From a virus (lineage: Duplodnaviria > Heunggongvirae > Uroviricota > Caudoviricetes): DNA of 30,763 nt. The position numbers were made by a program, and so were the translations under genes. The DNA lies in the IMG/VR virus record IMGVR_UViG_2718218434_000001; one strand, given 5' to 3'. The notes below the pieces were generated by a model. It made no database searches and had not been told where the DNA came from. It was given only the letters and a program-made list of their open reading frames with translations. How positions within the stretch are numbered: the first letter of the stretch is position 1; each line of letters opens with the position of its first letter. Shown piece after piece: positions 1,335 through 29,479 of this stretch.

Positions 1335-1586
1335 TCAAGTAAGATGACGTCTTGGTCTCGCTGATGCCTGGCGCTCAATCCAGCGATCAATTTCTTCCAG
1401 GTTGTAAAAGCATGGACTGTTATCCCATGGCATACCGTCATGAGCGACATGCTTATATTCCCTTCCTTCCATAAACGATTTTTCCCGGGCCTTTTTTAAC
1501 GTACCTTTTTTTATTCCTTTCAGCGCAATTAACTGCTCTTCGGATACCCATTTGCCGGGAGAGACAATCATGATTACTTCGCTCAT
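1335..1586 (-). CDS. xis: Excisionase-like small DNA-binding protein (Xis)
   Basis: Small basic ORF immediately upstream of int on the same strand; GREY-containing segment resembles lambda-type Xis; position-based inference. Confidence 0.55.
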   Translation of the reverse strand: MSEVIMIVSPGKWVSEEQLIALKGIKKGTLKKAREKSFMEGREYKHVAHDGMPWDNSPCFYNLEEIDRWIERQASARPRRHLT

Positions 1587-1658
1587 CGATTTCTTTATCT
1601 CTTACATCAGACGAGCGCCGGTTGCAGAATACCAGTCACAACCGGCGACAGTTGAACA

Positions 1659-4130
1659 TTAAGAATCAGCCTGACTCGGGATCAGTTTTTGCCAGATAAC
1701 TGAAACGTATTTTGCCTGGTAACGGGCGTCATCAAGTGCATTATGGCGCTCACCTTCGAATGGAATAGCCGTTCTGGCATCGAAGTCTATGGCTTTCCCC
1801 AGCTCAACGATTGTGCGTACATCGCGATCGTTGTAGTAACGCCACGGGCAGGGGATCCCCTGCCGTTCGTATGAACGGCGCAAAATCGTGTTGTCGAAGT
1901 TGGCTCCATTTCCCCAAACCTGAACAAAAAATTCACCGGAGTTTTCGTCGATAAATTCCCGCAATTGTAACAGTGCATCATCTAACGGGATTTCATCGGT
2001 CATAATGGCAGATTGCGCTTCGCGTGATTGCTTAAGCCACCATTTAATGGTGTCCCGATCAATGACTCCGCCAGCAGTTTCCAGATCGATAGTCTTACTA
2101 AATTCCGGTCCCATATCTCCGGTTTGCGGATCGAAAAATATTGCACCTATTGAGATGATCGGGGCATCAGGATTTTTTCCCATGGTTTCAAGGTCGATCA
2201 TTAGATGGTCACACGTCCTGCTGGTGGATGTGATTTCGTGATGACCGTTCACCTTAATTGAGTGATCTGCCGTCTCGCCAGTTTCATTATCGCTATTGTG
2301 ATGCTGATTGCCGCCAGTGTTCTCCTTGTGTGGATGTTCAGCGCCTTCCATTTCCTCCGGATCATCTTCCTGAACTTCAACCTGATACTCTTCATCGAAT
2401 GTTTCCTGGTATGTTGCGTCGCCCATCACCGCGCCACAATCAGGGCAGTTGCCGCCGCCGGTCTGACCGCAGGCGGTGCAGACTTTTTCCACTTCCTGTT
2501 GCGCCACTGGTTCAGGCTGTTTCGTTTCTGGCTCGTTTTGTAACGCATTTGGGCTGTTTTGTTCCGCTTTTTGGTAGTTCCGTTCCGATTCATGCTGGTT
2601 CTGGTTCACAGAATCGCGGGTCTGGATCCCCTTAACCCATTTCGGATCATTCGGGTCACTAATCCCTTCAACAAATTCACCACGTGATGCAGCAAGCAAC
2701 TTATCGGCGTCAGGCTGGCTGATATTGGCTGCCTGCATAATTTTGTTTACTTCGTCAGCGGTAACTTTTATCGGTTCTGGTTGTTCTGAATCTTCAGCGG
2801 TATCTACATTTTGCGGTAAGCCCGTGTATGTGCCATTTTTTCGGGCAAAATATTCTTCTTTTGTGATTTCAGTGGCGCCAGCAGCCAGTGCCTTATCCAG
2901 ACCAGAAAGTTTGTTTGCGCGACCGTATTTTTCTCCGTCCTTATCTGCGAAGAGGAAATAGAACGGCCCCTCACGCTCTACAGATGGTTCAGCTTCCGGC
3001 GCGGTTTCATTTTTTGGGATATCAGATACCTCAGTTTCCACTGCATCAGTTTGTGTTTCTGATGACTGGAGAACATCAACAGTGCCCAGGTCTGTTTCTT
3101 CATTCTCAAACACGCCCTTTGTCGTCAGGTATTCGCAGATATATTTGTTCAGTGCTACGGGATCTTTGTGAATGTCGATCGGACGCTCACGGACAAGGCC
3201 AAAAATAGTTTGGCGGGCGTAGCGAAGGGCATCAGGCTGTTTGCGCATTGATGCCGAGATACGCTTCCAGTCTTCGCGGTCGTTGTCGATAACTTCTTTT
3301 TTTGCCCAGCGATGGATGCTGCCGTCAATGTTTCCGGCAACCACATCACCAGGCCAGAGAGCGTAGGCCAGTTCGTCATCCAGTGTTTTCCATGTCTGCT
3401 TGTATTCGCGATGAATGGCAGCAATGACCGGGCTGATTTTTCCTGTTGAATTTTCAGTGTACTGTTGATTGGCTCTGGTGCGGGCGAGATCAACAACAGA
3501 CGTGTATTTTCCGGTTTCATTGCGTTCACCTTCGCGACGTTTTTTCCAGATGCGCATCTCTGCCTGAATTTCGGGCCATTTAGCACCAGGAATACATTTA
3601 TGCTTAACCCACCCAATGGCGTGCAACTTAAGCTCCGGAAACATGGCGTTAACTTCTGGCATTTTCATCAACGCTTCAACGATATGTCCGTCGAATGTTG
3701 CCATGTCTTCCTGCAACAATTCCTGTGCGCTAATAACCATATCAACGGTGATGTTTTCACATGTGTCGAACTTAACCATGACAGCGTTCTGTACTTCAGG
3801 GGCCAGCTTGTCAAAAGTGACGTTCATCGGATCGGATTTAGTCTCAACCGGGACAAAAGAAGCAGACTCCTCATCCCAGCGGTTTTCCTGCATATATTCA
3901 GCATCCCATGAATCGAGGGCAGGGCGGGGTATGCCAGGTTTATCCTCGCAGACAATAAATTTATAAGCGCAGTCCTGAGCAGCCGGATAATGTTCCAGGA
4001 ACTGCCAGTGAAATTTTGCTCGAGCACGGCGTTCGTCGCCAGCTTCAATGGCAGTGGCTACAGCCACAGCGCCTTCTTCCCTTGTTGCCAGTTCGTCAGG
4101 AATAGCGGCGCAAATAAAGACTTTACTCAT
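1659..4130 (-). CDS. Large prophage exonuclease (exodeoxyribonuclease VIII-like / YdfE-like) with C-terminal DEDDh 3'-5' exonuclease domain
   Basis: 823-aa ORF; C-terminus shows the three DnaQ-like motifs (DLET, WGNGANFDN, HNALDDARY); acidic and Gln-rich low-complexity middle and a CxxC...CxxC zinc-ribbon-like segment; no recT-like partner present. Confidence 0.8.
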   Translation of the reverse strand: MSKVFICAAIPDELATREEGAVAVATAIEAGDERRARAKFHWQFLEHYPAAQDCAYKFIVCEDKPGIPRPALDSWDAEYMQENRWDEESASFVPVETKSDPMNVTFDKLAPEVQNAVMVKFDTCENITVDMVISAQELLQEDMATFDGHIVEALMKMPEVNAMFPELKLHAIGWVKHKCIPGAKWPEIQAEMRIWKKRREGERNETGKYTSVVDLARTRANQQYTENSTGKISPVIAAIHREYKQTWKTLDDELAYALWPGDVVAGNIDGSIHRWAKKEVIDNDREDWKRISASMRKQPDALRYARQTIFGLVRERPIDIHKDPVALNKYICEYLTTKGVFENEETDLGTVDVLQSSETQTDAVETEVSDIPKNETAPEAEPSVEREGPFYFLFADKDGEKYGRANKLSGLDKALAAGATEITKEEYFARKNGTYTGLPQNVDTAEDSEQPEPIKVTADEVNKIMQAANISQPDADKLLAASRGEFVEGISDPNDPKWVKGIQTRDSVNQNQHESERNYQKAEQNSPNALQNEPETKQPEPVAQQEVEKVCTACGQTGGGNCPDCGAVMGDATYQETFDEEYQVEVQEDDPEEMEGAEHPHKENTGGNQHHNSDNETGETADHSIKVNGHHEITSTSRTCDHLMIDLETMGKNPDAPIISIGAIFFDPQTGDMGPEFSKTIDLETAGGVIDRDTIKWWLKQSREAQSAIMTDEIPLDDALLQLREFIDENSGEFFVQVWGNGANFDNTILRRSYERQGIPCPWRYYNDRDVRTIVELGKAIDFDARTAIPFEGERHNALDDARYQAKYVSVIWQKLIPSQADS

Positions 4131-4770: not shown

Positions 4771-4827
4771 AAAACGGCGGCAGAGCAGTCACGGAGTAAA
4801 ACTGATACCGCCAAACGTCACCAGAAA
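4771..4827 (-). ncRNA. dicF: DicF small regulatory RNA (ftsZ-targeting), with 3' stem-loop and U-tract
   Basis: Minus-strand sequence TTTCTGGTGACGTTTGGCGGTATCAGTTTTACTCCGTGACTGCTCTGCCGCCGTTTTT matches the recalled DicF sequence; located between ydfB/C-like gene and dicB as in the dic operon. Confidence 0.8.
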
Positions 4828-8197: not shown

Positions 8198-8599
8198 GTG
8201 GCAAAAGTTTTTACACAAGAAGAGCGGGAAAAAATTAAAGGGCAGGTGGTGGAACTCGTGCGCCAGAGCGGTCGTGAGACGTTACGGCAACTGGAAGCTA
8301 AAACAGGTGCGACTAGATATCTGATGAGCGTTCTTGCCAGAGAGCTGGTAGCCAGTGGCGATGTATACAACTCCGGCTACGGGTTATTCCCATCTGAACA
8401 GGCGCGTAAGGACTGGCAAAACGCCCGCAAAAAACTCTCGAGGGCAAAGGTGAAGAAAACAGCTGTGGTTGATCCGGACCTTATCTGGTCGTTACCTGAT
8501 GGAGAAATACGTCGCTACGACAGTCGCCTAAACATAATCTGTCGCGAGTGCCGGATGAGTGAAGTTATGCAGCGCATACTGGCATTTTATCAGGGATAA
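8198..8599 (+). CDS. Hypothetical protein (133 aa), GTG start
   Basis: AAGGGGGA RBS before GTG; basic protein with no recognised family; occupies the slot where a helicase loader (P/DnaC-like) would be expected but is too small and dissimilar. Confidence 0.55.
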   Translation: MAKVFTQEEREKIKGQVVELVRQSGRETLRQLEAKTGATRYLMSVLARELVASGDVYNSGYGLFPSEQARKDWQNARKKLSRAKVKKTAVVDPDLIWSLPDGEIRRYDSRLNIICRECRMSEVMQRILAFYQG

Positions 8600-8696
8600 T
8601 GTTAGGTATTTTAGACGTTACTAGATTAAAAAGCATTAGTTCAGGAGTGAATTGACATTCTCATTTTTCATGGCACAGGGTAGATCTGGCGTGGTT

Positions 8697-8720
8697 GTCC
8701 GCTTTGTGCCAAAAGCGGAC
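8697..8720. terminator. Stem-loop (GTCCGCTTT-loop-AAAGCGGAC) between convergent genes; no U-tract
   Basis: 9-bp perfect inverted repeat seen in sequence between the 133-aa gene and the 595-aa gene; function as terminator is inferred. Confidence 0.3.
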
Positions 8721-8817
8721 ATCGAATAATTTCAGCAGCACTCAACCTTATTAACCAAATCGCCTCAACTCATATGGACATGCATCCGGAAGTGCCAACT
8801 TCGTAAACTTATTCACT

Positions 8818-10605
8818 TTAAGTCTGAGCCTCACTCTCTTGGCCATAAGTGGCTTGCCAGTATCTCGCCGTAGGGTTCATTAGAATGTGCAATACAAGCC
8901 ACCATGCAAAAATGCAGGGAGGTTGATTGTAGTAACCGGCAGGCACATATCCGTGAGCTAGTTGATTTCGTAAATCACCATAGATTTTATCTACCAGTAA
9001 GGCCTGAAGATTGCCAATTATGTCTACGCCGAAAGCTTCAATAATCAGTGGATTATCTAGTAATCCCTTGAGTCCATTTCGCTCTTGCGAACCGTCCCCG
9101 TGAAGCTGCGATGGTTCCTCACCTTTAATTTTAGCCACATATCTCAGACTATTTTCGATCTGGGGAATCAACACGTGGCATGCCGTCATAAAATCTCCAT
9201 TGAAACCGCAAACCATACCCTTGATGAAAAACTCTTCATGCCCAAACGGGATGAAGGGATGATTGATGAACATATCGCGAAAAAACGCCTCCGAGATTGG
9301 ATATTTCATTGTGATCTCATCTGTAGCAGGAATAATTTGCCCAGCTACTGCCAACTCATGGTCGATACGCATTCTCGTCATCATTATGGGCCAAATAACT
9401 GCCCCATTTGCATCATCAATCCCCAATCCTGCGGGTATGCGAGCAAGTGTCATTCCCTCATGATCAATATGTGTTGATCCAAACATCCAAGCTATGCTGT
9501 TGGCCTTTTGTTCTATTGCTTGAGCCTTAAGTCTCTCAATGCTGGTTGGCCGACAGACCAGCATCGCAAGTCTGAAAACCATATCAAACAAATCTCTTCC
9601 GACTACCCGACTCTTGGCTTGATGGACAATCTCACTAATATCTTGAGGGGGAGACTGAAGGATAGACATCTGGTGACGGGATTCGATTTGGTAATCACGC
9701 ATTTCTTCATACAGCGCAAGACGTTCTATTCGGGTTCCTGGAATATTAGCCAGTGCTTCAATAGCATTCTGCATGCAGGCTGCCGAAATCATACCGCCAT
9801 CTTGGAATTTTGATTCTTCCAGATGTGTATCGGCAAGAAGCCGCCAGAATTCAAACTGTGTATCTCTGTCACAGCACCTATTCGCAATCGGGATTGCGGT
9901 TTTACAGGCATCGACGGCAAATGAAAATAATTTTTGAGCCAGATAGTTTTTTGTCAGAAACAGGAGTTCCTGGGCAATAAAAGATGGCTCACTCACTTTA
10001 CAGTCGATATCGAGTTGCAGGAGTCGCAGCGGATAAGGTGAATCGCCTTGTTCTCTGGTACGTTCATACTCTGCTAGTAGATGTGCCGAAAGCTGATCAA
10101 ATTCATCCCTGAAATCAGTATTCTTTCGAAAAAAACAACACAGCCTAAGCGCACGCTCTAGGCGTTCTAAAGCACTAACCCACGTCCCTTGCGATGTCAT
10201 AATAGCTATACTGGACGCATAATAAGCACGGACTGCCAGCAAAGGAAAACGGATTCCACCAATTTTACGAACCCAAAGTGTATCAGCAATACGAGCTTGA
10301 AGTTCGGGTAGCTCTATCGTCGGGCAAAATTGAGAAAGTACCTCCAGCGACAACCCGTTAATGTCATCCGGAATTGCAGATCTACCTTGGCTGCTTTGAA
10401 AGCACGGACCAAATGGTACCTGTGGATTTTCGGGACGAAAGTGAAAACCGCAAATATGGGTTAGCAGTCTTATCTCCGCTCTTCCATCACCTAGGCTAGA
10501 AAGATACTTTGTGATATCAAAGCAGGTAACTGGCAGCTTACTCTGGATTAAGGGGGATAAATCAATAGTGTTAAGTTCGTCGAGGCTGATATTAATATCG
10601 TCCAT
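8818..10605 (-). CDS. Orphan 595-aa protein, unknown function; candidate single-gene anti-phage/abortive-infection effector with C-terminal HEPN-like R-x4-H motif
   Basis: Long ORF with strong RBS (AAGGTGA 4 nt before ATG); on the strand opposite to flanking early genes; flanked by noncoding spacers; C-terminal DLRNQLAHG fits the Rx4-6H HEPN signature; no other motif recognised. Confidence 0.8.
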   Translation of the reverse strand: MDDINISLDELNTIDLSPLIQSKLPVTCFDITKYLSSLGDGRAEIRLLTHICGFHFRPENPQVPFGPCFQSSQGRSAIPDDINGLSLEVLSQFCPTIELPELQARIADTLWVRKIGGIRFPLLAVRAYYASSIAIMTSQGTWVSALERLERALRLCCFFRKNTDFRDEFDQLSAHLLAEYERTREQGDSPYPLRLLQLDIDCKVSEPSFIAQELLFLTKNYLAQKLFSFAVDACKTAIPIANRCCDRDTQFEFWRLLADTHLEESKFQDGGMISAACMQNAIEALANIPGTRIERLALYEEMRDYQIESRHQMSILQSPPQDISEIVHQAKSRVVGRDLFDMVFRLAMLVCRPTSIERLKAQAIEQKANSIAWMFGSTHIDHEGMTLARIPAGLGIDDANGAVIWPIMMTRMRIDHELAVAGQIIPATDEITMKYPISEAFFRDMFINHPFIPFGHEEFFIKGMVCGFNGDFMTACHVLIPQIENSLRYVAKIKGEEPSQLHGDGSQERNGLKGLLDNPLIIEAFGVDIIGNLQALLVDKIYGDLRNQLAHGYVPAGYYNQPPCIFAWWLVLHILMNPTARYWQATYGQESEAQT

Positions 10606-11279
10606 GTCGTCACCTTGATGATTTGTTAATGCGGGGGCAACATTAATAAATGTACTTGAGACCGCAATTTGTCGATGGAGCCAACATTTATAACTATGTG
10701 CTTCTACCCTCTGAATTTTTACATGTGAATTGCTAGCTTGAATAGCTCTATCATTATATACGTGGCACTAAATTATGGCTGTTTTTCGCTCAAAGCGGAC
10801 TAGAAGGTTAGCTTGTGTCGGACTTTGCGTATTAAAAGAAGTGCTGGTGGTGACTAGTGGTTGTGCCCCATTTCCACAGAAAAAATCAGAGAAACTATAC
10901 CCAATAGTTGTATTGAATCACTGACGAGACAGCCTCATATTCATCAGGACTGGTCTACGTCCAATACAGGAGGTTGTGGTGCTGGTTCTCAAATGTGCGC
11001 TGGCTATTACGGCTGTAATGGCGATTTATTGTCTTGCTATTGTTCTTATGGATCGCCTTTCTGACTGATTTCATATTGGCGAGGTAACGGTAGTTAAGTA
11101 GAATGGCTGCGGGTGCTTGAGGCTATCTGCCTCGGGCATGAACACCAAAGGCAGATAGAGAAAAGCCCCAGTTAACATTACGCGTCCTGCAAGACGCTTA
11201 ACATTAATCTGAGGCCAATTTCATGCTAGACACATGTAGGTTAGCCTCTTACGTGCCGAAAGGCAAGGAGAAGCAGGCT

Positions 11280-11435
11280 ATGAAGCAGCAAAAGGCGATG
11301 TTAATCGCCCTGATCGTCATCTGTTTAACCGTCATAGTGACGGCACTGGTAACGAGGAAAGACCTCTGCGAGGTACGAATCCGAACCGGCCAGACGGAGG
11401 TCGCTGTCTTCACAGCTTACGAACCTGAGGAGTAA
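11280..11435 (+). CDS. hokD: Hok/Gef-family membrane toxin (HokD/RelF-like, 51 aa)
   Basis: Translation MKQQKAMLIALIVICLTVIVTALVTRKDLCEVRIRTGQTEVAVFTAYEPEE matches recalled HokD; structured leader upstream (10-bp inverted repeat CTATCTGCCT/AGGCAGATAG); no relBE upstream. Confidence 0.85.
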   Translation: MKQQKAMLIALIVICLTVIVTALVTRKDLCEVRIRTGQTEVAVFTAYEPEE

Positions 11436-13316: not shown

Positions 13317-13693
13317 ATGCGTGATATTCAGATGGTTCTTGAGCGTTGGGGGCATGGGCGGCTAATAATCATGAAGATGTGACCTGGTCGTCCATTGCCG
13401 CCGGTTTTAAGGGATTAATTCCTTCAAAAGTAAGATCTCGTCCGCAATGCTGTGACGATGACGCGATGATCATTTGTGAATGTATGGCTCGCCTGAAAAA
13501 AAACAACAGCGATTTACATGATTTATTGGTGGACTATTATGTCGGCGGCATGACTTTTATGGCGCTTGCACGTAAGCATGGGCGATCTGATTGTTGGGTT
13601 GGCAGGATGCTCCAGAAAGCTGAGGGCGTAGTGGAGGGCATGCTGATGGTGTTGGATCTCCGATTGGAGATGGATGCTGATTGTTCGAAATAA
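13317..13693 (+). pseudogene. Late antiterminator Q (Q82/QuuD-like), N-terminal frameshift at a G5 tract
   Basis: ATG at 13317 with GGAG RBS encodes [11 protein letters not shown] then stops after 21 codons; the rest of Q ([15 protein letters not shown]...) continues in the -1 frame from 13346 with no ATG; frames join at G run 13348-13352. Confidence 0.6.
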
Positions 13694-14565: not shown

Positions 14566-15525
14566 ATGATAAAAAAACCTGTGATTGGGATCAGCGGTTG
14601 TTTGGGCGGTTCTGCTGTTCGTTTTGATGGTGGTCACAAAAGAGATGACTTTTTAATGGACAAATTAGTGGAATGGGTAACATTCAGACCAGTATGTCCG
14701 GAAATGGCTATAGGGCTGCCAGTTCCGCGTCCTGCTCTACGACTTGTGCGCTCGAAGCAAGGAAATATACGGATGTGTTTCAGCCACGACCAGAATGAGG
14801 ATGTGACAGAGAGAATGACAGAGTTTAGTCGTTCTTATATGGACAAATTAAAGGATGTATCGGGGTTTGTGGTTTGTGCTAAATCTCCCAGCTGTGGCAT
14901 GGAGCGCGTGCGTGTCTATGATGAAAATGGTAATCGAGGTCGTAAAGATGGAGTGGGACTATTTACGAGCACTTTGATGGAAAAGTTTTCCTGGCTACCG
15001 GTTGAAGAGGATGGGCGATTACATGATCCAGTGCTTCGTGAGAATTTTATTGAAAGAGTTTTTGCTTTGCATGAGCTCAATCATCTTTACAAGGAGAAAT
15101 TATCAAGAAGAGAGTTATTAGCTTTTCATAGTCGTTATAAGCTTCAGTTGTTGGCGCATAGCCAGGCAGGCTATAAAGATATGGGACCATTTGTGGCTGC
15201 AATACACGAGTGGGCGGACCTTGAATCATACTTTGAGGTGTATCGTGATAATCTGATGGCGATTCTCAGAAAACCAGCATCACGTAAAAATCACACGAAT
15301 GTGCTGATGCATATACAGGGGTATTTTAGTAATTACTTAAGTACACGCCAGCGTAAAGAGTTGAGCGAGGTTATACTTAACTATCGCTTTGGCACATTGC
15401 CTCTTCTTGCGCCGTTGACTCTGCTGAAGCATTATCTGGGTGAGTATCCTAATGATTACTTGCTTACACAGAATTACTTCGATCCCTATCCGGAAGAACT
15501 GGCTCTAAGACTGATGGTGAATTAA
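14566..15525 (+). CDS. DUF523 (TudS-like Fe-S thiouracil desulfidase family) fused to DUF1722 (YbgA-like) protein
   Basis: N-terminal GISGCLGGSAVRFDGGHK with additional conserved Cys (CPE, SPSCG) typical of DUF523; strong GGGGGAGGA RBS. Confidence 0.7.
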   Translation: MIKKPVIGISGCLGGSAVRFDGGHKRDDFLMDKLVEWVTFRPVCPEMAIGLPVPRPALRLVRSKQGNIRMCFSHDQNEDVTERMTEFSRSYMDKLKDVSGFVVCAKSPSCGMERVRVYDENGNRGRKDGVGLFTSTLMEKFSWLPVEEDGRLHDPVLRENFIERVFALHELNHLYKEKLSRRELLAFHSRYKLQLLAHSQAGYKDMGPFVAAIHEWADLESYFEVYRDNLMAILRKPASRKNHTNVLMHIQGYFSNYLSTRQRKELSEVILNYRFGTLPLLAPLTLLKHYLGEYPNDYLLTQNYFDPYPEELALRLMVN

Positions 15526-15999
15526 CTGTATGCGATATCATCTGAAAGTGATGAGTTCCTGTATGCAGGATATTTACAATCGTAAAAACTACGCTATGAT
15601 GCCCATAGTGTCAGTTTGTATAAAAATCCTGTTCACGCTAAAGAAAACATTGAGATGCAATTTAATGTTGGTAAACATACCAGCCCCAAAAGATTTTATT
15701 CAATCTGTTTTTATATGAAGATATTTCAAGTGAATATTAAGAGCATATAATATTATTATTGCACGCAGCTATTATAATATAACAGATTAGTTTAATGATT
15801 TGTTTTTTGTGAGTTAAACACATGGTTTTATAGTTGTGATGCAATGAGATTTTCCTTATTGTTGAACTGGCGAATATTGATTTTCCACCTATACTTACCT
15901 GGTGTAACCCCAATGATATCAGGTGGATAATATGCCATACATATGTTCTATCATTTTGGTGTTGAACTCGTTTGTTGTCCGAATTGGTAAAGAAGATAT

Positions 16000-16644
16000 T
16001 TGTTTAAAAAAGGAAATGCTGTCCTCATTGAATACAATTTAAAAGATCTTTTTTCGTCAAATACAGATCATCTAATGATCGTAGATGTTGAGGAGAAAAC
16101 AGTTAATGATTTCTTTAAAAACTACACACTCTCACCTTTTTCTGTAAGAAGGTTTTATCCGTCATACTTGATAGTAGAATGTGAAGATTTTTCATTGTTA
16201 AGGAACTTGGTTGCATGCTTGAATTGTGATAGCAAAACCGTGGATGTAGTTAGAAATCAAATATCACTTGCATGTCTTGCTGTCTTATCTTCAGAGAAAA
16301 TAGTGCAAAGTTTTTTGTTCGGAAGTCTTAATAGCTTAGGTTGTAAAGTTAAGGCTATTATTCACTCGGATATCTCAGCGTCATGGAGACTTTGTGATAT
16401 ATCTTCAAGATTATATATGAGCGAGAGTTTGTTAAAAAGAAAATTAAAAGACGAAGGATTATCGTTTAGTAAATTAATTCTTGAAGAACGAATGATGATG
16501 GCGCAAAGATTATTGATCTACAGTAACCATACTGTCGGCAAGGTGGCGGGAATATGCGGGTATGACAATGCATCATATTTTGTAAGTGTTTTTAGAGGAT
16601 ATTTTGGTGTGCCTCCGCACCAATATTTATCAAGATTTTCTTAG
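16000..16644 (+). CDS. AraC-family transcriptional regulator (AppY-like); N-terminus uncertain (TTG start or truncated)
   Basis: C-terminal AraC HTH region (GYDNASYFVSVFRGYFGVPPHQY); preceded by a very AT-rich ~280-bp region. Confidence 0.65.
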   Translation: MFKKGNAVLIEYNLKDLFSSNTDHLMIVDVEEKTVNDFFKNYTLSPFSVRRFYPSYLIVECEDFSLLRNLVACLNCDSKTVDVVRNQISLACLAVLSSEKIVQSFLFGSLNSLGCKVKAIIHSDISASWRLCDISSRLYMSESLLKRKLKDEGLSFSKLILEERMMMAQRLLIYSNHTVGKVAGICGYDNASYFVSVFRGYFGVPPHQYLSRFS

Positions 16645-16892: not shown

Positions 16893-17192
16893 ATGACAAA
16901 AACAGTATCAACCAGTAAAAAACCCCGTAAACAGCATTCGCCTGAATTTCGCAGTGAAGCCCTGAAGCTTGCTGAACGCATCGGTGTTACTGCCGCAGCC
17001 CGTGAACTCAGCCTGTATGAATCACAGCTCTACAACTGGCGCAGTAAACAGCAAAATCAGCAGACGTCTTCTGAACGTGAACTGGAGATGTCTACCGAGA
17101 TTGCACGTCTCAAACGCCAGCTGGCAGAACGGGATGAAGAGCTGGCTATCCTCCAAAAGGCCGCGACATACTTCGCGAAGCGCCTGAAATGA
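16893..17192 (+). CDS. insE: IS3 transposase OrfA (InsE)
   Basis: HTH-containing orfA translation [29 protein letters not shown]... within IS3. Confidence 0.85.
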
Positions 17193-18055
17193 AGTATGTC
17201 TTTATTGAAAAACATCAGGCTGAGTTCAGCATCAAAGCAATGTGCCGCGTGCTCCGGGTGGCCCGCAGCGGCTGGTATACGTGGTGTCAGCGGCGGACAA
17301 GGATAAGCACGCGTCAGCAGTTCCGCCAACACTGCGACAGCGTTGTCCTCGCGGCTTTTACCCGGTCAAAACAGCGTTACGGTGCCCCACGCCTGACGGA
17401 TGAACTGCGTGCTCAGGGTTACCCCTTTAACGTAAAAACCGTGGCGGCAAGCCTGCGCCGTCAGGGACTGAGGGCAAAGGCCTCCCGGAAGTTCAGCCCG
17501 GTCAGCTACCGCGCACACGGCCTGCCTGTGTCAGAAAATCTGTTGGAGCAGGATTTTTACGCCAGTGGCCCGAACCAGAAGTGGGCAGGAGACATCACGT
17601 ACTTACGTACAGATGAAGGCTGGCTGTATCTGGCAGTGGTCATTGACCTGTGGTCACGTGCCGTTATTGGCTGGTCAATGTCGCCACGCATGACGGCGCA
17701 ACTGGCCTGCGATGCCCTGCAGATGGCGCTGTGGCGGCGTAAGAGGCCCCGGAACGTTATCGTTCACACGGACCGTGGAGGCCAGTACTGTTCAGCAGAT
17801 TATCAGGCGCAACTGAAGCGGCATAATCTGCGTGGAAGTATGAGCGCAAAAGGTTGCTGCTACGATAATGCCTGCGTGGAAAGCTTCTTTCATTCGCTGA
17901 AAGTGGAATGTATCCATGGAGAACACTTTATCAGCCGGGAAATAATGCGGGCAACGGTGTTTAATTATATCGAATGTGATTACAATCGGTGGCGGCGGCA
18001 CAGTTGGTGTGGCGGCCTCAGTCCGGAACAATTTGAAAACAAGAACCTCGCTTAG
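17189..18055 (+). CDS. insF: IS3 transposase OrfB (InsF), DDE integrase-type catalytic domain
   Basis: orfB in -1 frame overlapping orfA end, typical IS3-family organisation. Confidence 0.85.
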
Positions 18056-19188: not shown

Positions 19189-20216
<1,028 letters not shown>

Positions 20217-20579
20217 ATTAATATTAAATCGGATTATTTTTAGCGCTGAATGTGAAATTTAAATAAAAAGGACTCTTCCATGAGTCAAAATCCTTGAAAT
20301 CTTAAGGGTAAGATAAAAGGTCATTAGACAGAATGACACGTTTTATTAATAAATAAAGCTATTGTTTCATTCGTGTGTTTTTCTTTACAAAAGTAATCCT
20401 TGCTATGGTTGGTTAATCATGCGTTAATGGTGTTCTGGTTTGTTACAAAATTATCTGAAGCAGTCATTGTTATAATTTTATTATTTGTACCTCTTGAGAT
20501 TTCCTTGTTGGTTTTTCTCTCTGATATTTTTTTTCGGACCATTCTGCCCAAGGGCTAACTTCTTCAAAAGGTAATAATG

Positions 20580-20792
20580 ATGTCTAACAAAATGACTGGT
20601 TTAGTGAAATGGTTTAACCCTGAAAAAGGTTTTGGTTTCATCACGCCGAAAGATGGTAGCAAAGATGTGTTTGTCCATTTCTCAGCTATTCAGAGCAACG
20701 ATTTCAAAACGTTAACTGAGAATCAGGAAGTCGAATTTGGTATTGAGAACGGACCTAAAGGCCCCGCGGCTGTTCATGTTGTGGCACTTTGA
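20580..20792 (+). CDS. cspI: Cold-shock protein CspI-like (CspA family, 70 aa)
   Basis: Translation [38 protein letters not shown]... with RNP motifs; long AT-rich 5' UTR (20220-20576). Confidence 0.9.
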
Positions 20793-20991
20793 GGTAGAAA
20801 ATATTACAAACCATATTCACTTTAGATGCCCGTGTTGCCATGGTTCTCAGTATAGAACATCATCTTTTGATGTTTCTGACAGGAATCCTTTCGGGGCAAA
20901 ATGTATCTTTTGTAAATCAATGATGATTACATTTGATAATATTTCACAATACTTAAATGTTAGCCGTCTATCGTTAGATTTAAGAAAGTGA
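20776..20991 (+). CDS. Candidate small zinc-ribbon protein (CxxC...CxxC) downstream of cspI (YnfQ/YmcF-like?)
   Basis: ORF overlapping cspI end in another frame; contains CPCCHG and CIFCKS pairs; start codon uncertain. Confidence 0.3.
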
Positions 20992-20995
20992 AAAT

Positions 20996-21020
20996 GAAGG
21001 CTCCTTCGGGAGCTTTTTTG
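20996..21020 (+). terminator. Rho-independent terminator (GGCTCC-TTCG-GGAGC + T6)
   Basis: Stem-loop plus T-run seen in sequence after the csp locus. Confidence 0.7.
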
Positions 21021-21063
21021 CTTAGTGTCTAGTCGATGGATACTCACATATTACGGTAACATT

Positions 21064-21294
21064 ATGAAAAAAATAATAGTTTTTTTTAACTCTGAACCAG
21101 CAATGGTAGTGCCAGTGATGACCGGAGTTAACACCATCATGCGTGAATATCCAAATGGCGAAACAACACACCTCACTGTAATGGCTGCAGGGTTTCCATC
21201 TCTGACCGGAGATCATAAAGTCATTTATGTAGCAGCGGATCGACATGTAACTTCAGAAGAAATTCTGGAAGCAGCAATGAGACTCTTGAATTGA
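21064..21294 (+). CDS. Hypothetical small protein (76 aa)
   Basis: ORF from internal ATG (MKKIIVFFNSEP...); weak RBS; no family recognised. Confidence 0.4.
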   Translation: MKKIIVFFNSEPAMVVPVMTGVNTIMREYPNGETTHLTVMAAGFPSLTGDHKVIYVAADRHVTSEEILEAAMRLLN

Positions 21295-21466
21295 TTTGAT
21301 TCTAATGCATTGATAATAAATGATAATCATCTTTATCTGTTTGTGTGAAATTTAGACCGTCGTATGTTGATTATTGCGATGTTTCATCTTATCTTTTATA
21401 CGTTTGCTCCATATAATTGACACTACTGTGTACCAGGAAAGTCATAACAGACTAAAAGAGGAAATG

Positions 21467-21640
21467 ATGAACATTGAAGAGTTAAAAACAAAAACAGAAG
21501 CAGATATTTCTGAATATATAACAAAAAAAATCATTGAGCTTAAGAAAAAGACCGGGAAAGAAGTTACCAGTATCCAGTTTACTGCACGGGAAAAAATGAC
21601 TGGTCTTGAAAGCTATGATATCAAGATTGATTTAATCTAG
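21467..21640 (+). CDS. gnsB: GnsA/GnsB-family small protein (57 aa)
   Basis: Translation MNIEELKTKTEADISEYITKKIIELKKKTGKEVTSIQFTAREKMTGLESYDIKIDLI resembles recalled GnsB; GAGG RBS. Confidence 0.7.
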   Translation: MNIEELKTKTEADISEYITKKIIELKKKTGKEVTSIQFTAREKMTGLESYDIKIDLI

Positions 21641-21933
21641 TCTGTTTAGTATTAGCATCAATTTCTCATCAGATGCTATTCAACAATACAAATTACCCAT
21701 AAACCTCGTTTTTACGGGGTTTTGTTATATTTAAACATTACCGAATAGGTATAAATCTCGATTGTCGATGGTATTGGTTGTGTGACAATACCTAGTCTTT
21801 CCGGTATGCCTGATGAGAATACAAACGACAGATTATGTAAGGGAAACGCGCTGAATCTTTAACTCTTTCATGCTGAGTGATTTGACGTTATATTTTTAGC
21901 CGTAAGTGAAGAGCAAACGCATGGAGCGACAAA

Positions 21934-22140
21934 ATGCATAAAGATCAATACACTGATGCCCCCTCCCAGGAGCAGGTTCGTGTAAAAACTATGCTTAATA
22001 GCACCATTTCGATGGGTTACCCGGATGTTGTAATTGCATGTATAGAACATCAAGTGTCTCTGGAAGCATTCAGGGCAATTGAGGCCGCGTTAGTAAAGCA
22101 CGATAAGAATACGAAGGATTATTCCCTGGTGGTTGACTGA
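21934..22140 (+). CDS. Hypothetical small protein (68 aa)
   Basis: ATG with GGAG RBS 6 nt upstream; no family recognised. Confidence 0.4.
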
Positions 22141-27554: not shown

Positions 27555-28145
27555 TTATATGTCAGGTGTCTGAAGTTTTGCTTTGGCTCTTAAAATGGTT
27601 TGCCGCGAGGTTTTGAATTCCCGGGCAATGGCACTTATACTTACACCTGACTTAATCCGTTCGAATACCACCTGTTTCTGTTCTTCATTTAACACAGGTG
27701 GTCGACCAAAACGTTTCCCTGCGCCCCGGGCTCTTACTATCCCGGAATGAGTGCGTTCAAGTAAAAGGTCTCGTTCAAATTCAGCGACTGCTGAAATTAC
27801 TTGCATCATCATTTTTCCTGTTGGACTGGTCAGGTCAATGCCCCCCAATGCTAAGCAATGCACTCTGATACCTGTTTCGGTCAGTTGTTCCACTGTTTTC
27901 CTGATATCCATTGCATTACAACCAAGGCGATCCAATTTTGTCACAATCAATTGATCACCACATTTCAGGCGAGCAAGCAACCGGTTAAAACCAGGACGCT
28001 CACTGGTTGCTGCTGAGCCGCTAATGTGTTCTTCGATTATTTGCTGAGGTTTGATTTTAAAACCTGCACTTTCGATTTCCCGGCGTTGATTTTCGGTGGT
28101 CTGATCCAGCGTTGATATCCGACAGTAAGCAAAAATTCGAGACAT
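27555..28145 (-). CDS. pinQ: Serine recombinase / DNA invertase family protein (PinQ/PinR-like, 196 aa)
   Basis: N-terminal catalytic motif YCRISTLDQ and C-terminal HTH; position next to ydfK as in Qin/Rac. Confidence 0.8.
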
Positions 28146-28460
28146 AGTGAGACTCTATACGAAATTGGTGTTCATATCATAATGCATCTCAGAAAATAAT
28201 TTTGATTATTTTTGTGCATATTTGTATGTACACGTTCGAAAATAAACGAATGCGTATGCAACCCCGTAATTTTGGTGAGACCCAAAATCGATTTTGTGAA
28301 AAATGGCTTTAACTCGGTTTGTTTTTCGAGTTCCAGGCGGACTCAAGGAAGAAGAATAGTGTTGCGTGTTATTTTAACCAGATTTCAAGTTGTTTGGTCG
28401 TGGAAAAGTGGAGCAAAATGTTGTTAAAGTGGAAAATGATAAAAAAGTAAGTTAATTATA

Positions 28461-28694
28461 TTACATTTTACCATTTAAATTTTGGTTGTCTTTAAGAACT
28501 GATATCGCTGTTTGTAATAATTCTTTGTTATCCAGCCATGATTTTTTCTTTATGTTTCCTTCAATGTAATCAAGCAATGTTCTGGTATTGATAGGTCTTC
28601 CCTGTTTTGCTACTTCCACTACAGCATCCCCTAGGATAATTCTTACTTCAGGAAGCTGCGCAGGGAACCACTTTAGGGTGTCTTTTGATTTCAT
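28461..28694 (-). CDS. ydfK: Cold-shock-induced small protein YdfK/YnaE family (77 aa)
   Basis: Translation from internal ATG MKSKDTLKWFPAQLPEVRIILGDAVVEVAKQGRPINTR... matches recalled YdfK/YnaE; AAGGA RBS. Confidence 0.75.
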   Translation of the reverse strand: MKSKDTLKWFPAQLPEVRIILGDAVVEVAKQGRPINTRTLLDYIEGNIKKKSWLDNKELLQTAISVLKDNQNLNGKM

Positions 28695-29479
28695 GAAGAT
28701 ATTCCTTAAAATATTATTGATTTTCATTGCGATATTGTATGTCTGATTCAGGATATGTTGACTTATACATCGGTTTTGTCTGGGTTATTGGATATGCCAA
28801 TCCCTAATTTTATTAGGGCATGACTAAAAATGCTGAATATGATAAGGAGAGAAGTGATTATCAGTATGCTGTTCATATAGCCTCGAATTAGTAATGTGTT
28901 ATATATGATATAGTTGACGATTTTTATCCTGGGTGTTCTTAAAGTTCGTAGATAAACATTGTCGTTTCAGGTATACAGGAATGCTAACAGGTGGCAGCAA
29001 AAATCAGGCGGTTTATGGCGCAAGCTGAAGCGGCAACTGCAAACTATCTTATGCAGAGACTCTACACGGATTGGGTTTAAAAGTATACATAGATAACAGT
29101 TTTTATCTGAAGAAGAAAAATATCAAGGTGATATAGCCTATATGCCTTTGATGCGGAGGAATGAATGTGATGGGAGTGATGTATCTGAATAGTTGAAAAA
29201 CCGCAGACACGCCTTATGCAAGAACGTGCTGCGGTTGGCTGGTAAATTTTTCGATAGTGTGTGTATTGAATGATTTCCAGCCGTTCTTGATTTTACGCAT
29301 AAATCCATGAAAAAACCACTTATCTGTTGGGGAGTTTTTTTGGGGCATATATGGGACAGAAATAGGCCCCAGATAGACACTGAGATCGAACTCAGGATGC
29401 TTTTTAAAAAATGCAACTATCTGAAAAAACCTAGAAAACGCCAAGGGAACCACAGGATGGGAAAAAACACCTGTGAATT

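Follow-up and report, generated by a model that had tools for sequence, protein, structure and literature searches.

HEPN proteins form a superfamily of metal-independent RNases whose active site is usually composite across a dimer. Validated defences in which a HEPN domain acts within a single protein include HEC-08 (a DUF3644 HEPN with zinc-finger-like domains), DS-11 (CBS and HEPN), and DS-38 and PD-T7-4 (both HEPN and zinc finger), and in this group mutation of the Rx4-6H histidine or of other catalytic residues abolished defence. HepS of the Salmonella prophage Gifsy-1 is a trigger-activated HEPN anticodon nuclease that combines sensor and effector (Sargen et al. 2026, PMC13043305); it is triggered by the tail-tip protein J and targets tRNA Thr, Ile, and Ser (PMC13043305). 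DUF4209, the domain of interest here, has been counted among the HEPN superfamily since 2013, when an active site was also predicted for it (PMC3710099), and the HEPN domain of the eukaryotic protein C6orf70/ERMARD was predicted to be catalytically active (Anantharaman et al. 2013, PMC3710099). Bacterial defence candidates with a PDC label are predictions only, and they go back to genes that lay inside BREX, DISARM, and type I R-M loci (Payne et al., bioRxiv 10.1101/2024.01.29.577857). Rousset et al. (2022) catalogued a distant P2-borne 'Putative HEPN' and cloned it with its native promoter, and no defence was seen against eight phages (PMC9122126); the S88 'Putative HEPN' construct pFR103 is listed among the assayed, non-validated systems (Rousset 2022 Table S2B, PMC9122126).

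The sequence analysed here, referred to as the window, is a 30,763-nucleotide stretch of a Caudoviricetes record (IMGVR_UViG_2718218434_000001). It contains an ATG-initiated ORF of 595 aa at 8818..10605 on the minus strand, which ORF, Pfam, and PADLOC analyses identified as a PDC-S39-family gene with a DUF7380, helical-repeat, and DUF4209 (HEPN) layout. The product is 100% identical to the RefSeq protein WP_073544235.1 ('DUF4209 domain-containing protein') of E. coli D2. As the initial annotation of this DNA had described, the gene runs opposite to the flanking early genes, which are a plus-strand DUF977 gene (8198-8599) and plus-strand hokD (11280-11435). A strong ribosome-binding site had also been claimed, and the Shine-Dalgarno-like AAGGTGA was read at 10610..10616 (minus strand), 4 nt 5' of the ATG. 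The noncoding spacers, given earlier as ca. 220 and 600 bp, measured 218 bp on one side and 674 bp on the other side up to the start of hokD, or 505 bp up to the hok/sok RNA element, which starts at 11111. The hok toxin had been taken to be stand-alone, a description that does not hold, since hokD is accompanied by a complete sok/hok regulatory element (Rfam RF01794, 118 bits). A promoter and terminator scan 5' of the ORF gave nothing on the gene strand, and the number of sites did not exceed that in shuffled sequence. A TATAAT-like hexamer is present at 10753-10758 without a convincing -35 partner. A hairpin at 8696-8721 was considered as a terminator or RNA element and rejected, because its fold z-score was only -1.7 and it is not kept in C. 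freundii; a 31-nt similarity 3' of the stop codon between E. coli and C. freundii overlaps it.

The same annotation had regarded the gene as an orphan with no recognisable phage function. The database matches contradict this: besides the Pfam domains described below, the protein matches PHROG 5183 and the PADLOC PDC-S39 models PDLC05012 (1.9e-102, aa 43-581 versus profile positions 54-602 of 615) and PDLC05011 (4.3e-102), and the gene is annotated by RefSeq in 152 of 5,426 complete E. coli genomes (2.8%). These two PDC-S39 models were the only PADLOC-DB v2 matches at E <= 1, with no characterised system or Abi family among them; Pfam returned only DUF7380, DUF4209, and a sub-threshold MreB match, and NCBIfam returned no match. 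The E. coli copies are at least 99% identical and the gene is intact and full length in 147 of the 152 carriers; an IS1203 insertion interrupts one copy, and truncated variants also occur. A copy in the reference strain ATCC 25922 is 99.9% identical. The gene is under purifying selection, with a dN/dS against the C. freundii orthologue of 0.125 overall; among the three regions the HEPN domain had the lowest value (0.069) and DUF7380 the highest (0.21). The window protein is a full-length member of a DUF7380-DUF4209 family of ca. 4,500 clusters at 50% identity, found in Enterobacterales, Vibrio, Aeromonas, Pseudomonas, Shewanella, cyanobacteria, and P2-like phages, and it has all family-invariant residues. 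Approximately 1,700 cluster representatives matched with E <= 1e-30. Joining of the N-terminal part, as a swappable sensor, to alternative effectors was looked for, but the best 150 of the ca. 4,500 matches almost all had one layout of ca. 600 aa. Only isolated variants departed from it (N-terminal TIR-like with Mrr_cat, C-terminal AbiEi, and N-terminal HTH_17), so that support for modularity of these proteins is weak.

Three regions were distinguished in the protein. The N-terminal DUF7380 region (aa 4-166; 10108..10596, minus strand; Pfam PF24098, 2.3e-34) has near-invariant residues at A104, R105, D108, W111, A124, Y128, and R151 in the homologue alignment, and we propose that it may be part of a sensor or regulatory module. 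It is followed by an all-alpha, TPR-like helical-repeat middle region (aa ca. 119-370; 9496..10251, minus strand), and the fold matches of the N-terminal module as a whole were generic helical repeats. The C-terminal HEPN-fold domain (aa 404-594; 8824..9396, minus strand) includes the Pfam DUF4209 match at aa 484-573 (PF13910, 33.9 bits versus a gathering cut-off of 22.3, E 3.3e-8), and the DUF4209 model also matched the C-terminal domains of all 20 homologues searched (20/20). In the structure prediction, a check that the initial annotation had named, the C-terminal ca. 190 residues adopt the alpha-helical bundle of HEPN proteins, and their best structural matches were the HEPN toxins of HEPN-MNT toxin-antitoxin systems; the predicted arrangement of the domains relative to each other is uncertain (pTM 0.62). 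Sequence-profile searches of the PDB with full-length and C-terminal profiles gave no significant HEPN match, so the link to HEPN rests on structure and literature and not on a sequence-to-structure match.

The stretch DLRNQLAHG (residues 544-552) had been noted as fitting the Rx4-6H signature of HEPN RNases, and this was borne out. The signature R546-N-Q-L-A-H551, followed by G552, lies at 8953..8970 (minus strand); among 46 homologues with identities as low as 24%, R546, H551, and G552 never varied and N547 (N or H) was conserved to at least 90%. It had also been cautioned that the motif might be due to chance. For the motif by itself the caution is justified, as the protein contains four Rx4-6H matches versus 2.7 expected from its composition, which is not beyond chance. 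It does not stand against the conservation in the 46 homologues; the motif is significant because of this conservation within the family and its position in the HEPN-fold domain. A second conserved element, the PQIENSLR helix (aa 481-488; 9142..9165, minus strand), has, in the same homologues, invariant Q482, E484, S486, and R488 and at least 90% conserved P481 and N485, and from the general description of HEPN domains (PMC3710099) it probably provides the polar/acidic position of the first HEPN helix. The window protein has the HEPN motif in the form R-[NHQ]-x3-H together with the invariant E484 in PQIENSLR, the probable first helix. The motif is also kept in ORF612 of P2-EC46 (IRHTMAHG), which is ca. 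21% identical, and in the 569R9 protein (TLRHKLAHG).

The gene resides in a defective Qin-like prophage, with a frameshifted Q, an IS3 insertion, and missing morphogenesis genes. Because the prophage is defective, any benefit would go to the cell and not to a transmissible phage. Homology breakpoints versus other E. coli prophages delimit the exchangeable cargo, which lies between the DUF977 gene and hok/sok and spans approximately 8607..10781: left-flank homology ends at 8606-8720, and right-flank homology resumes at 10781-10786, or at 11084 or 11266 in other lineages. In other E. coli prophages the same slot holds Kiwa (KwaA and KwaB), AbiH, an AbiU-like AIPR protein, SIR2, PDC-S15, or relBE, and it is a genuine defence-cargo hotspot. 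The earlier statement that related prophages carry relBE and other accessory genes at this position agrees with these data, relB-relE being directly upstream of hokD in the K-12 Qin prophage. Distant family members occupy the tin/old hotspot between gpA and gpQ of P2, where they rank #13 and #55 among the P2 hotspot systems; the A. fischeri homologue has a type I R-M system on one side and PDC-S06 on the other, the E. kobei homologue lies between Q and the holin gene of a lambdoid prophage, and the C. freundii homologue at a prophage edge. Copies of the family were thus found in three different prophage cargo slots and one R-M island, and the DUF977-hokD slot, the P2 tin/old hotspot, and the type I R-M/PDC-S06 island are the kind of defence-island or mobile-cargo location that is sought for defence genes. 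In 4 of the 10 contexts (V. cholerae, Aeromonas, P0059 metagenome contigs, and partly Shewanella) the gene lay in a small insertion surrounded by housekeeping genes, and no defence gene could be recognised nearby. The neighbours differed in all ten independent contexts examined (10/10), and a conserved partner gene sought in them was not found; in keeping with the single-gene definition of PDC-S39, the gene has no obligatory partner. ORFs of ca. 160 aa downstream of the gene in Vibrio and Aeromonas were considered as a second component and rejected, as they are unrelated to each other. Between the E. coli and C. freundii loci, conservation does not extend into the flanking DNA.

Based on these results, we favour, with moderate confidence, the reading that the window protein acts in immunity or abortive infection as a self-contained effector made of one polypeptide, and that its gene is exchangeable cargo of a prophage defence hotspot. 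The initial annotation had suggested a single-gene defence effector, and the invariant R and H residues, the lack of a conserved partner, and the cargo hotspot support that suggestion, but not the novelty it implied. The idea of a defence candidate is not new, given the HEPN assignment of 2013, the PDC-S39 label, and the distant member assayed in 2022. Short of the DefensePredictor supplements and the prophage paper of Brenes and Laub, the literature covered on DUF4209, DUF7380, PDC-S39, ERMARD/C6orf70 with HEPN, and DefensePredictor contained no member with a positive defence result. HepS, at an equivalent prophage position, serves as a precedent for the favoured reading; the negative P2 result and the four contexts among housekeeping genes count against it. 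The protein most likely would combine an N-terminal helical sensor with a C-terminal HEPN effector, and it is the architecture that suggests a sensing role for the N-terminal module. In an uninfected lysogen, the protein would be made and its HEPN RNase kept inactive; expression is assumed here because the promoter scan gave nothing above chance. The HEPN site may then be freed or assembled in response to a cue from the phage, most likely one of its proteins bound by the N-terminal helical module. The activated enzyme would cleave cellular RNA, which may be tRNA anticodon loops, mRNA, or rRNA, and this cleavage would stop translation and block phage production, probably at the expense of the infected cell.

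Three other explanations were weighed against this reading. The protein might process or bind host or prophage RNAs or nucleotides as part of lysogenic-conversion physiology, with no role in defence. HEPN proteins with non-immune roles exist, namely Las1, Ire1-KEN, MtlR, and sacsin; DUF4209 also occurs in C6orf70/ERMARD, for which no immune role is known, several bacterial copies lie among housekeeping genes, and the P2 paralogue showed no defence. We nevertheless regard such a role as unlikely, since the patchy, strain-variable distribution (2.8% of complete E. coli genomes, with copies at least 99% identical), the occupation of three prophage cargo slots and one R-M island, and the derivation of PDC-S39 from genes embedded in defence loci form a pattern typical of mobile defence genes and not of housekeeping RNA processing. 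A silent or decaying passenger, that is, a remnant with a HEPN-like fold and no current function, would suit the degraded prophage (Q frameshift, IS3, and lost morphogenesis genes), the IS1203-disrupted copy, and the truncated variants. This is very unlikely for a gene that is intact in 147 of 152 carriers, has a dN/dS of 0.125 overall and 0.069 in the HEPN domain, retains every family-invariant residue, and belongs to a family in which ca. 1,700 representatives match at E <= 1e-30 and the best 150 listed are nearly all ca. 600 aa long.

It is also quite improbable that the HEPN RNase is the addiction or stabilisation toxin of a toxin-antitoxin-like module, which would mainly stabilise the prophage or islet and not stop phages, with a small ORF, an RNA, or an intramolecular domain as the antitoxin. 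No MNT gene or other conserved neighbour was found in the ten contexts, the downstream ORFs are mutually unrelated, and the DNA flanking the gene differs between E. coli and C. freundii, although the best structural matches of the domain are HEPN-MNT toxins and the slot holds relBE in K-12 and adjoins hok/sok. HigBA-like toxin-antitoxin genes occur nearby in Pseudomonas, in a cyanobacterium the stop codon overlaps with a PIN gene, and one member of the family carries a fused AbiEi antitoxin domain; against these stands the 400-residue N-terminal module conserved throughout the family, which points to regulation or sensing within the protein more than to a separate antitoxin. A toxin-antitoxin role and a defence role can, moreover, coexist.

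A broader proposal extends the favoured reading of a phage-triggered defence effector: the DUF7380-DUF4209 proteins may be a large class of phage-triggered RNases whose N-terminal module would be a new kind of direct phage-protein sensor, and their HEPN domain may be the prokaryotic counterpart of that in eukaryotic ERMARD/C6orf70. At present we consider this proposal doubtful. If the defence role were validated, a very large and widespread 'domain of unknown function' family would become a defined immune RNase, and the DUF977-hokD slot of Qin-like prophages would count as one more mapped defence hotspot of E. coli. The nearly identical copy in ATCC 25922 makes experiments in the native context easy. 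The presence of DUF4209 in ERMARD is a possible, speculative bridge to eukaryotic biology; if the broader proposal is true, ERMARD would belong with the immune modules shared by bacteria and humans, and the human protein would be predicted to act as an RNase.

Compared with known systems, the window protein differs from HEPN-MNT toxins such as SO_3166 (PDB 5yep), 7ae2, and 8xdj in its organisation: these are proteins of ca. 130-140 aa that an adjacent MNT antitoxin neutralises, with a sequence identity of 6-10%, whereas the neighbours here are the DUF977 gene and hokD, and no nucleotidyltransferase occurs in the homologue contexts. No sequence similarity of the window protein to any PDB chain was found. 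It resembles HepS in having an Rx4-6H HEPN, in being encoded alone, and in occupying an equivalent accessory slot downstream of lambdoid replication genes. HepS, however, is a small solo-HEPN that forms a tetramer and has the motif R100-H105, whereas the window protein has 595 aa with a DUF7380/helical-repeat module of ca. 400 aa; it is not a member of the small, single-domain, tetrameric solo-HEPN type, although it may work alike. With C6orf70/ERMARD (PF13910, now EMARD_N) it has the DUF4209-type HEPN in common, while ERMARD is eukaryotic and membrane-associated, with TPR or WD40 fusions described in some lineages; no evidence of the DUF7380 module was found in ERMARD. Like HEC-08, DS-11, DS-38, and PD-T7-4, the window protein joins a HEPN RNase, predicted in its case, to a non-catalytic domain in one polypeptide, although those proteins belong to other HEPN subfamilies with other accessory domains, and none has been reported with DUF4209 or DUF7380. 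The P2-EC46 ORF612 protein and the S88 prophage/vB_EcoM-569R9 protein share with it full-length PDC-S39 and DUF7380 matches, both HEPN motifs, and a single-gene location in a prophage defence hotspot. These P2 DUF4209 proteins differ in their low identity (ca. 21-24%), in the phage family and slot, and in being encoded on the same strand as their neighbours, and for the P2-borne member that was assayed the identity is ca. 24% across the C-terminal half that aligns. The closest described system is PDC-S39 of PADLOC-DB v2, a label that carries no mechanism; the window protein matches it end to end with no structural difference and is a member.

The studied ORF (8818-10605, minus strand, 595 codons) begins with ATG and has the Shine-Dalgarno sequence AAGGTGA 4 nt upstream of its start as read from the sequence, and the position, strand, length and strong ribosome-binding site given in the initial annotation were thus confirmed. 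Opposite transcription and noncoding spacers had also been claimed; the flanking DUF977 gene (8198-8599) and hokD (11280-11435) both lie on the plus strand, at distances of 218 and 674 bp (ca. 220 and 600 bp had been stated). In its entirety, the window corresponds to the defective Qin-like prophage of Escherichia coli strain D2; it extends from the integrase to a truncated ydfJ, lies between rspB and ydfJ, and is 100% identical to the D2 genome over the segments compared. Its Q antiterminator gene is frameshifted (ca. 13317-13693), an IS3 is inserted at ca. 16893-18055, both ydfR and lom are cut short, and genes for head or tail morphogenesis are absent from 1-30763. Rfam matches include the DicF antisense sRNA (4775-4826, minus strand, 72.5 bits) and a cspA-type thermoregulator 5′ region at cspI (20422-20838, plus strand, 109.8 bits). 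Patches of low GC content (0.32-0.37 at 15501-16500, 20001-22000 and 28001-29000, against about 0.45-0.50 elsewhere in the window) suggest further foreign cargo.

The protein had been described as an orphan of no recognisable function, which did not hold. It matches DUF7380 (aa 4-166, E = 2.3e-34) and DUF4209 (aa 484-573, 33.9 bits with a cut-off of 22.3) in Pfam, the function-unknown family PHROG 5183, and, over its full length, both profiles of PDC-S39 (1.9e-102), a single-gene phage defence candidate family of PADLOC. Its RefSeq name is "DUF4209 domain-containing protein", and among 5,426 complete E. coli genomes RefSeq annotates the gene in 152, including that of ATCC 25922; all these copies are chromosomal and at least 99% identical, and 146 of the 152 share the same flanking context. 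In E. coli strain 720632 (NZ_CP025842.1, 599509-602609), the gene is split by IS1203 and annotated as two proteins, DUF7380 and DUF4209. Copies also exist in Enterobacter hormaechei (97% identical) and Citrobacter freundii (81%), and the same architecture of ca. 600 aa is found in Vibrio, Aliivibrio, Photobacterium, Aeromonas, Shewanella, Pseudomonas and many cyanobacteria. When the N-terminal 400 residues were used as a profile, 4,531 cluster representatives (50% identity) were matched; for 1,705 of these E was ≤ 1e-30, and almost all of the best 150 of the 4,531 were ca. 600 aa long. Rare variants carry a TIR-like/Nuc_deoxyrib_tr domain and an Mrr_cat nuclease fused N-terminal to the DUF7380 module (P0176, whose C-terminus looks truncated), a C-terminally fused AbiEi antitoxin (P0255) or an N-terminal HTH_17 (P0234).

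The HEPN assignment had been drawn from an R-x4-H motif, which is not evidence by itself, as four Rx4-6H occurrences were found in the protein against 2.7 expected from composition; what stood was its conservation across homologues and the published placement of DUF4209. In an alignment of 46 homologues with identities down to 24%, only 11 columns were invariant, including R546, H551 and G552 as well as Q482, E484, S486 and R488 of the upstream "PQIENSLR" helix, and position 547 was N or H throughout. Judged from this alignment, the conserved set is the canonical HEPN R-[NH]-x3-H signature with the polar or acidic position of the first helix. DUF4209 (the C6orf70/ERMARD family) was placed in the HEPN superfamily by Anantharaman et al. 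2013 (PMC3710099), who predicted catalytic activity and noted its occurrence in operons related to restriction-modification (R-M). The window protein is very probably a HEPN-fold protein with a catalytic-type site, the domain lying at its C-terminus. The preceding ca. 400 residues form a conserved helical module of DUF7380 and TPR-like repeats. Compared with the C. freundii orthologue, dN/dS was 0.125 overall, indicating purifying selection; it was lowest in the HEPN domain (0.069), higher in the middle (0.145) and highest at the N-terminus (0.21). No sequence similarity to any PDB chain was detected.

Comparison with other E. coli genomes revealed that the segment separating the DUF977 gene from hokD is a site of exchangeable cargo, where homology ends at ca. 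8606-8720 and restarts at ca. 10781. At this position, other prophages carry QueH with KwaA and KwaB (Kiwa; 1500-4013 of locus L018, E. coli 746), AbiH with a hypothetical protein (789-3178 of L019), an AIPR protein matching the AbiU model (1646-3421 of L017), a SIR2 protein (1747-2706 of L020), NUDIX and HAD hydrolases, or methyltransferases; phage Evi carries an HTH regulator and an acetyltransferase. In Escherichia phage Tritos (OV696610), the cargo is a 444-aa protein of PDC-S15, another PADLOC candidate, encoded on the minus strand (1760-3094 of L015) and likewise opposite to its neighbours. The relBE genes said to occupy this position in related prophages are indeed there in K-12 Qin. 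In Qin-like prophages, this interval acts like a defence hotspot, and we did not find it named as such in the literature searched. Its shared spacer, common to prophages with different cargo, contains unannotated putative ORFs on the plus strand within 10775-11064, one of 49 aa (10775-10924) overlapping a Cys/Gly-rich one of 67 aa (10861-11064). The hok gene, taken to be stand-alone, belongs to a complete hok/sok locus (11111-11435, plus strand), with a full-length Rfam sok match (RF01794, 118 bits) at 11111-11285. K-12 Qin lacks this upstream element, since relBE abuts hokD and homology to the window begins only at about 11266.

When 50,697 phage records were searched with the window protein by tblastn, only two matches were obtained, both in P2-like phages: one is ORF612 of P2-EC46, the other a protein of vB_EcoM-569R9 annotated as "DUF4209 domain-containing protein". 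Each aligns along its whole length with the PDC-S39 profiles (2e-67 and 8.5e-85), matches DUF7380 and keeps the HEPN motifs. The 569R9 gene lies between gpA and gpQ, the site of tin and old in P2 itself and a defence hotspot of P2-like phages (Rousset et al. 2022, PMC9122126), in which DUF4209 proteins are systems #13 (193 occurrences) and #55 (76 occurrences; their Table S5B). Two unrelated families of temperate phages carry members of this protein family in their defence-cargo hotspots. In the same study, the version from E. coli S88, named "Putative HEPN" (pFR103), was cloned into a pSC101 plasmid under its native promoter and listed among the "additional tested systems" (Table S2B) and not the validated ones (Table S2A), and therefore no defence was detected against the eight phages used. 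This negative is informative and not decisive, since one PARIS system in that study was inactive until expressed from an inducible promoter. The S88 protein equals that of 569R9 save for a few substitutions over the portion compared, and the S88/569R9 protein shares about 24% identity with the window protein over the aligned C-terminal half.

Homologues occur in varied surroundings. The Aliivibrio fischeri homologue lies between a type I R-M system, which has embedded genes of its own, and PDC-S06, a 771-aa AAA_13 protein (11854-14169 of L012, minus strand) with weaker similarity to PrrC. The Enterobacter kobei homologue lies between Q and holin of a lambdoid prophage, that of C. freundii at a prophage edge, and those of Pseudomonas and Shewanella adjoin a HigBA-like pair and a Schlafen/AlbA_2 gene, respectively. 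In Vibrio cholerae, Aeromonas and one metagenomic lineage, the gene sits in one- or two-gene islets amid housekeeping genes; downstream ORFs of ca. 160 aa in Vibrio and Aeromonas were rejected as a shared partner, being mutually unrelated. The cyanobacterial homologue (Trichocoleus sp.) is followed by a 140-aa PIN-domain gene (11926-12348 of L022, plus strand), whose 4-nt overlap with the DUF4209 stop codon suggests a lineage-specific two-gene operon. No neighbour was conserved across the contexts compared, which makes the gene a self-sufficient mobile unit.

A role in defence against phages or other mobile elements is the reading we consider probable. An addiction or stabilisation toxin would agree with the best structural matches, which are toxin-antitoxin toxins, and with a slot rich in toxin-antitoxin genes, but no conserved antitoxin candidate was found and we consider this improbable. 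Similarly small is the chance of a non-immune role in RNA processing or regulation: the eukaryotic relative ERMARD has no known immune function, some copies lie amid housekeeping genes and the P2 paralogue was negative when tested, whereas the distribution is patchy, mobile and hotspot-bound. That the gene is a decaying passenger in a dead prophage is very hard to reconcile with its intactness, selection signature and family size.

The proposal of a candidate defence gene was thus a real finding, well reasoned, whose conclusion was already in databases: DUF4209 has been assigned to HEPN since 2013, the P2 hotspot cargo was catalogued as "Putative HEPN" in 2022, and PDC-S39 is listed as a candidate in PADLOC-DB v2 and a 2024 preprint. 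PDC systems are explicitly untested predictions, the DefensePredictor study left them out as unvalidated, and no positive validation of a PDC-S39/DUF4209 member was found in the literature searched. An experiment is worthwhile because the family is very large, the reference strain ATCC 25922 carries the exact gene and human ERMARD contains the same domain; that the family is a new class of phage-sensing RNase homologous to a eukaryotic protein seems unlikely.

The locus is a candidate single-protein HEPN effector with a helical sensor-like module. The protein would be an autoinhibited RNase: once its N-terminal module had recognised a cue derived from the phage, the HEPN site, which probably forms across a dimer, would cleave tRNA, mRNA or rRNA, halting translation and aborting infection. 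We lean slightly towards this mechanism as a whole. Among systems known to work, the closest parallel is HepS, a HEPN protein encoded in the corresponding accessory slot of the lambdoid Salmonella prophage Gifsy-1; HepS is activated allosterically by the phage tail-tip protein J and then cuts tRNA anticodon loops (PMC13043305). The window protein may act in a similar way; it is not, however, a member of the HepS family, since HepS is a small solo-HEPN tetramer and the window protein a multidomain protein of 595 aa.
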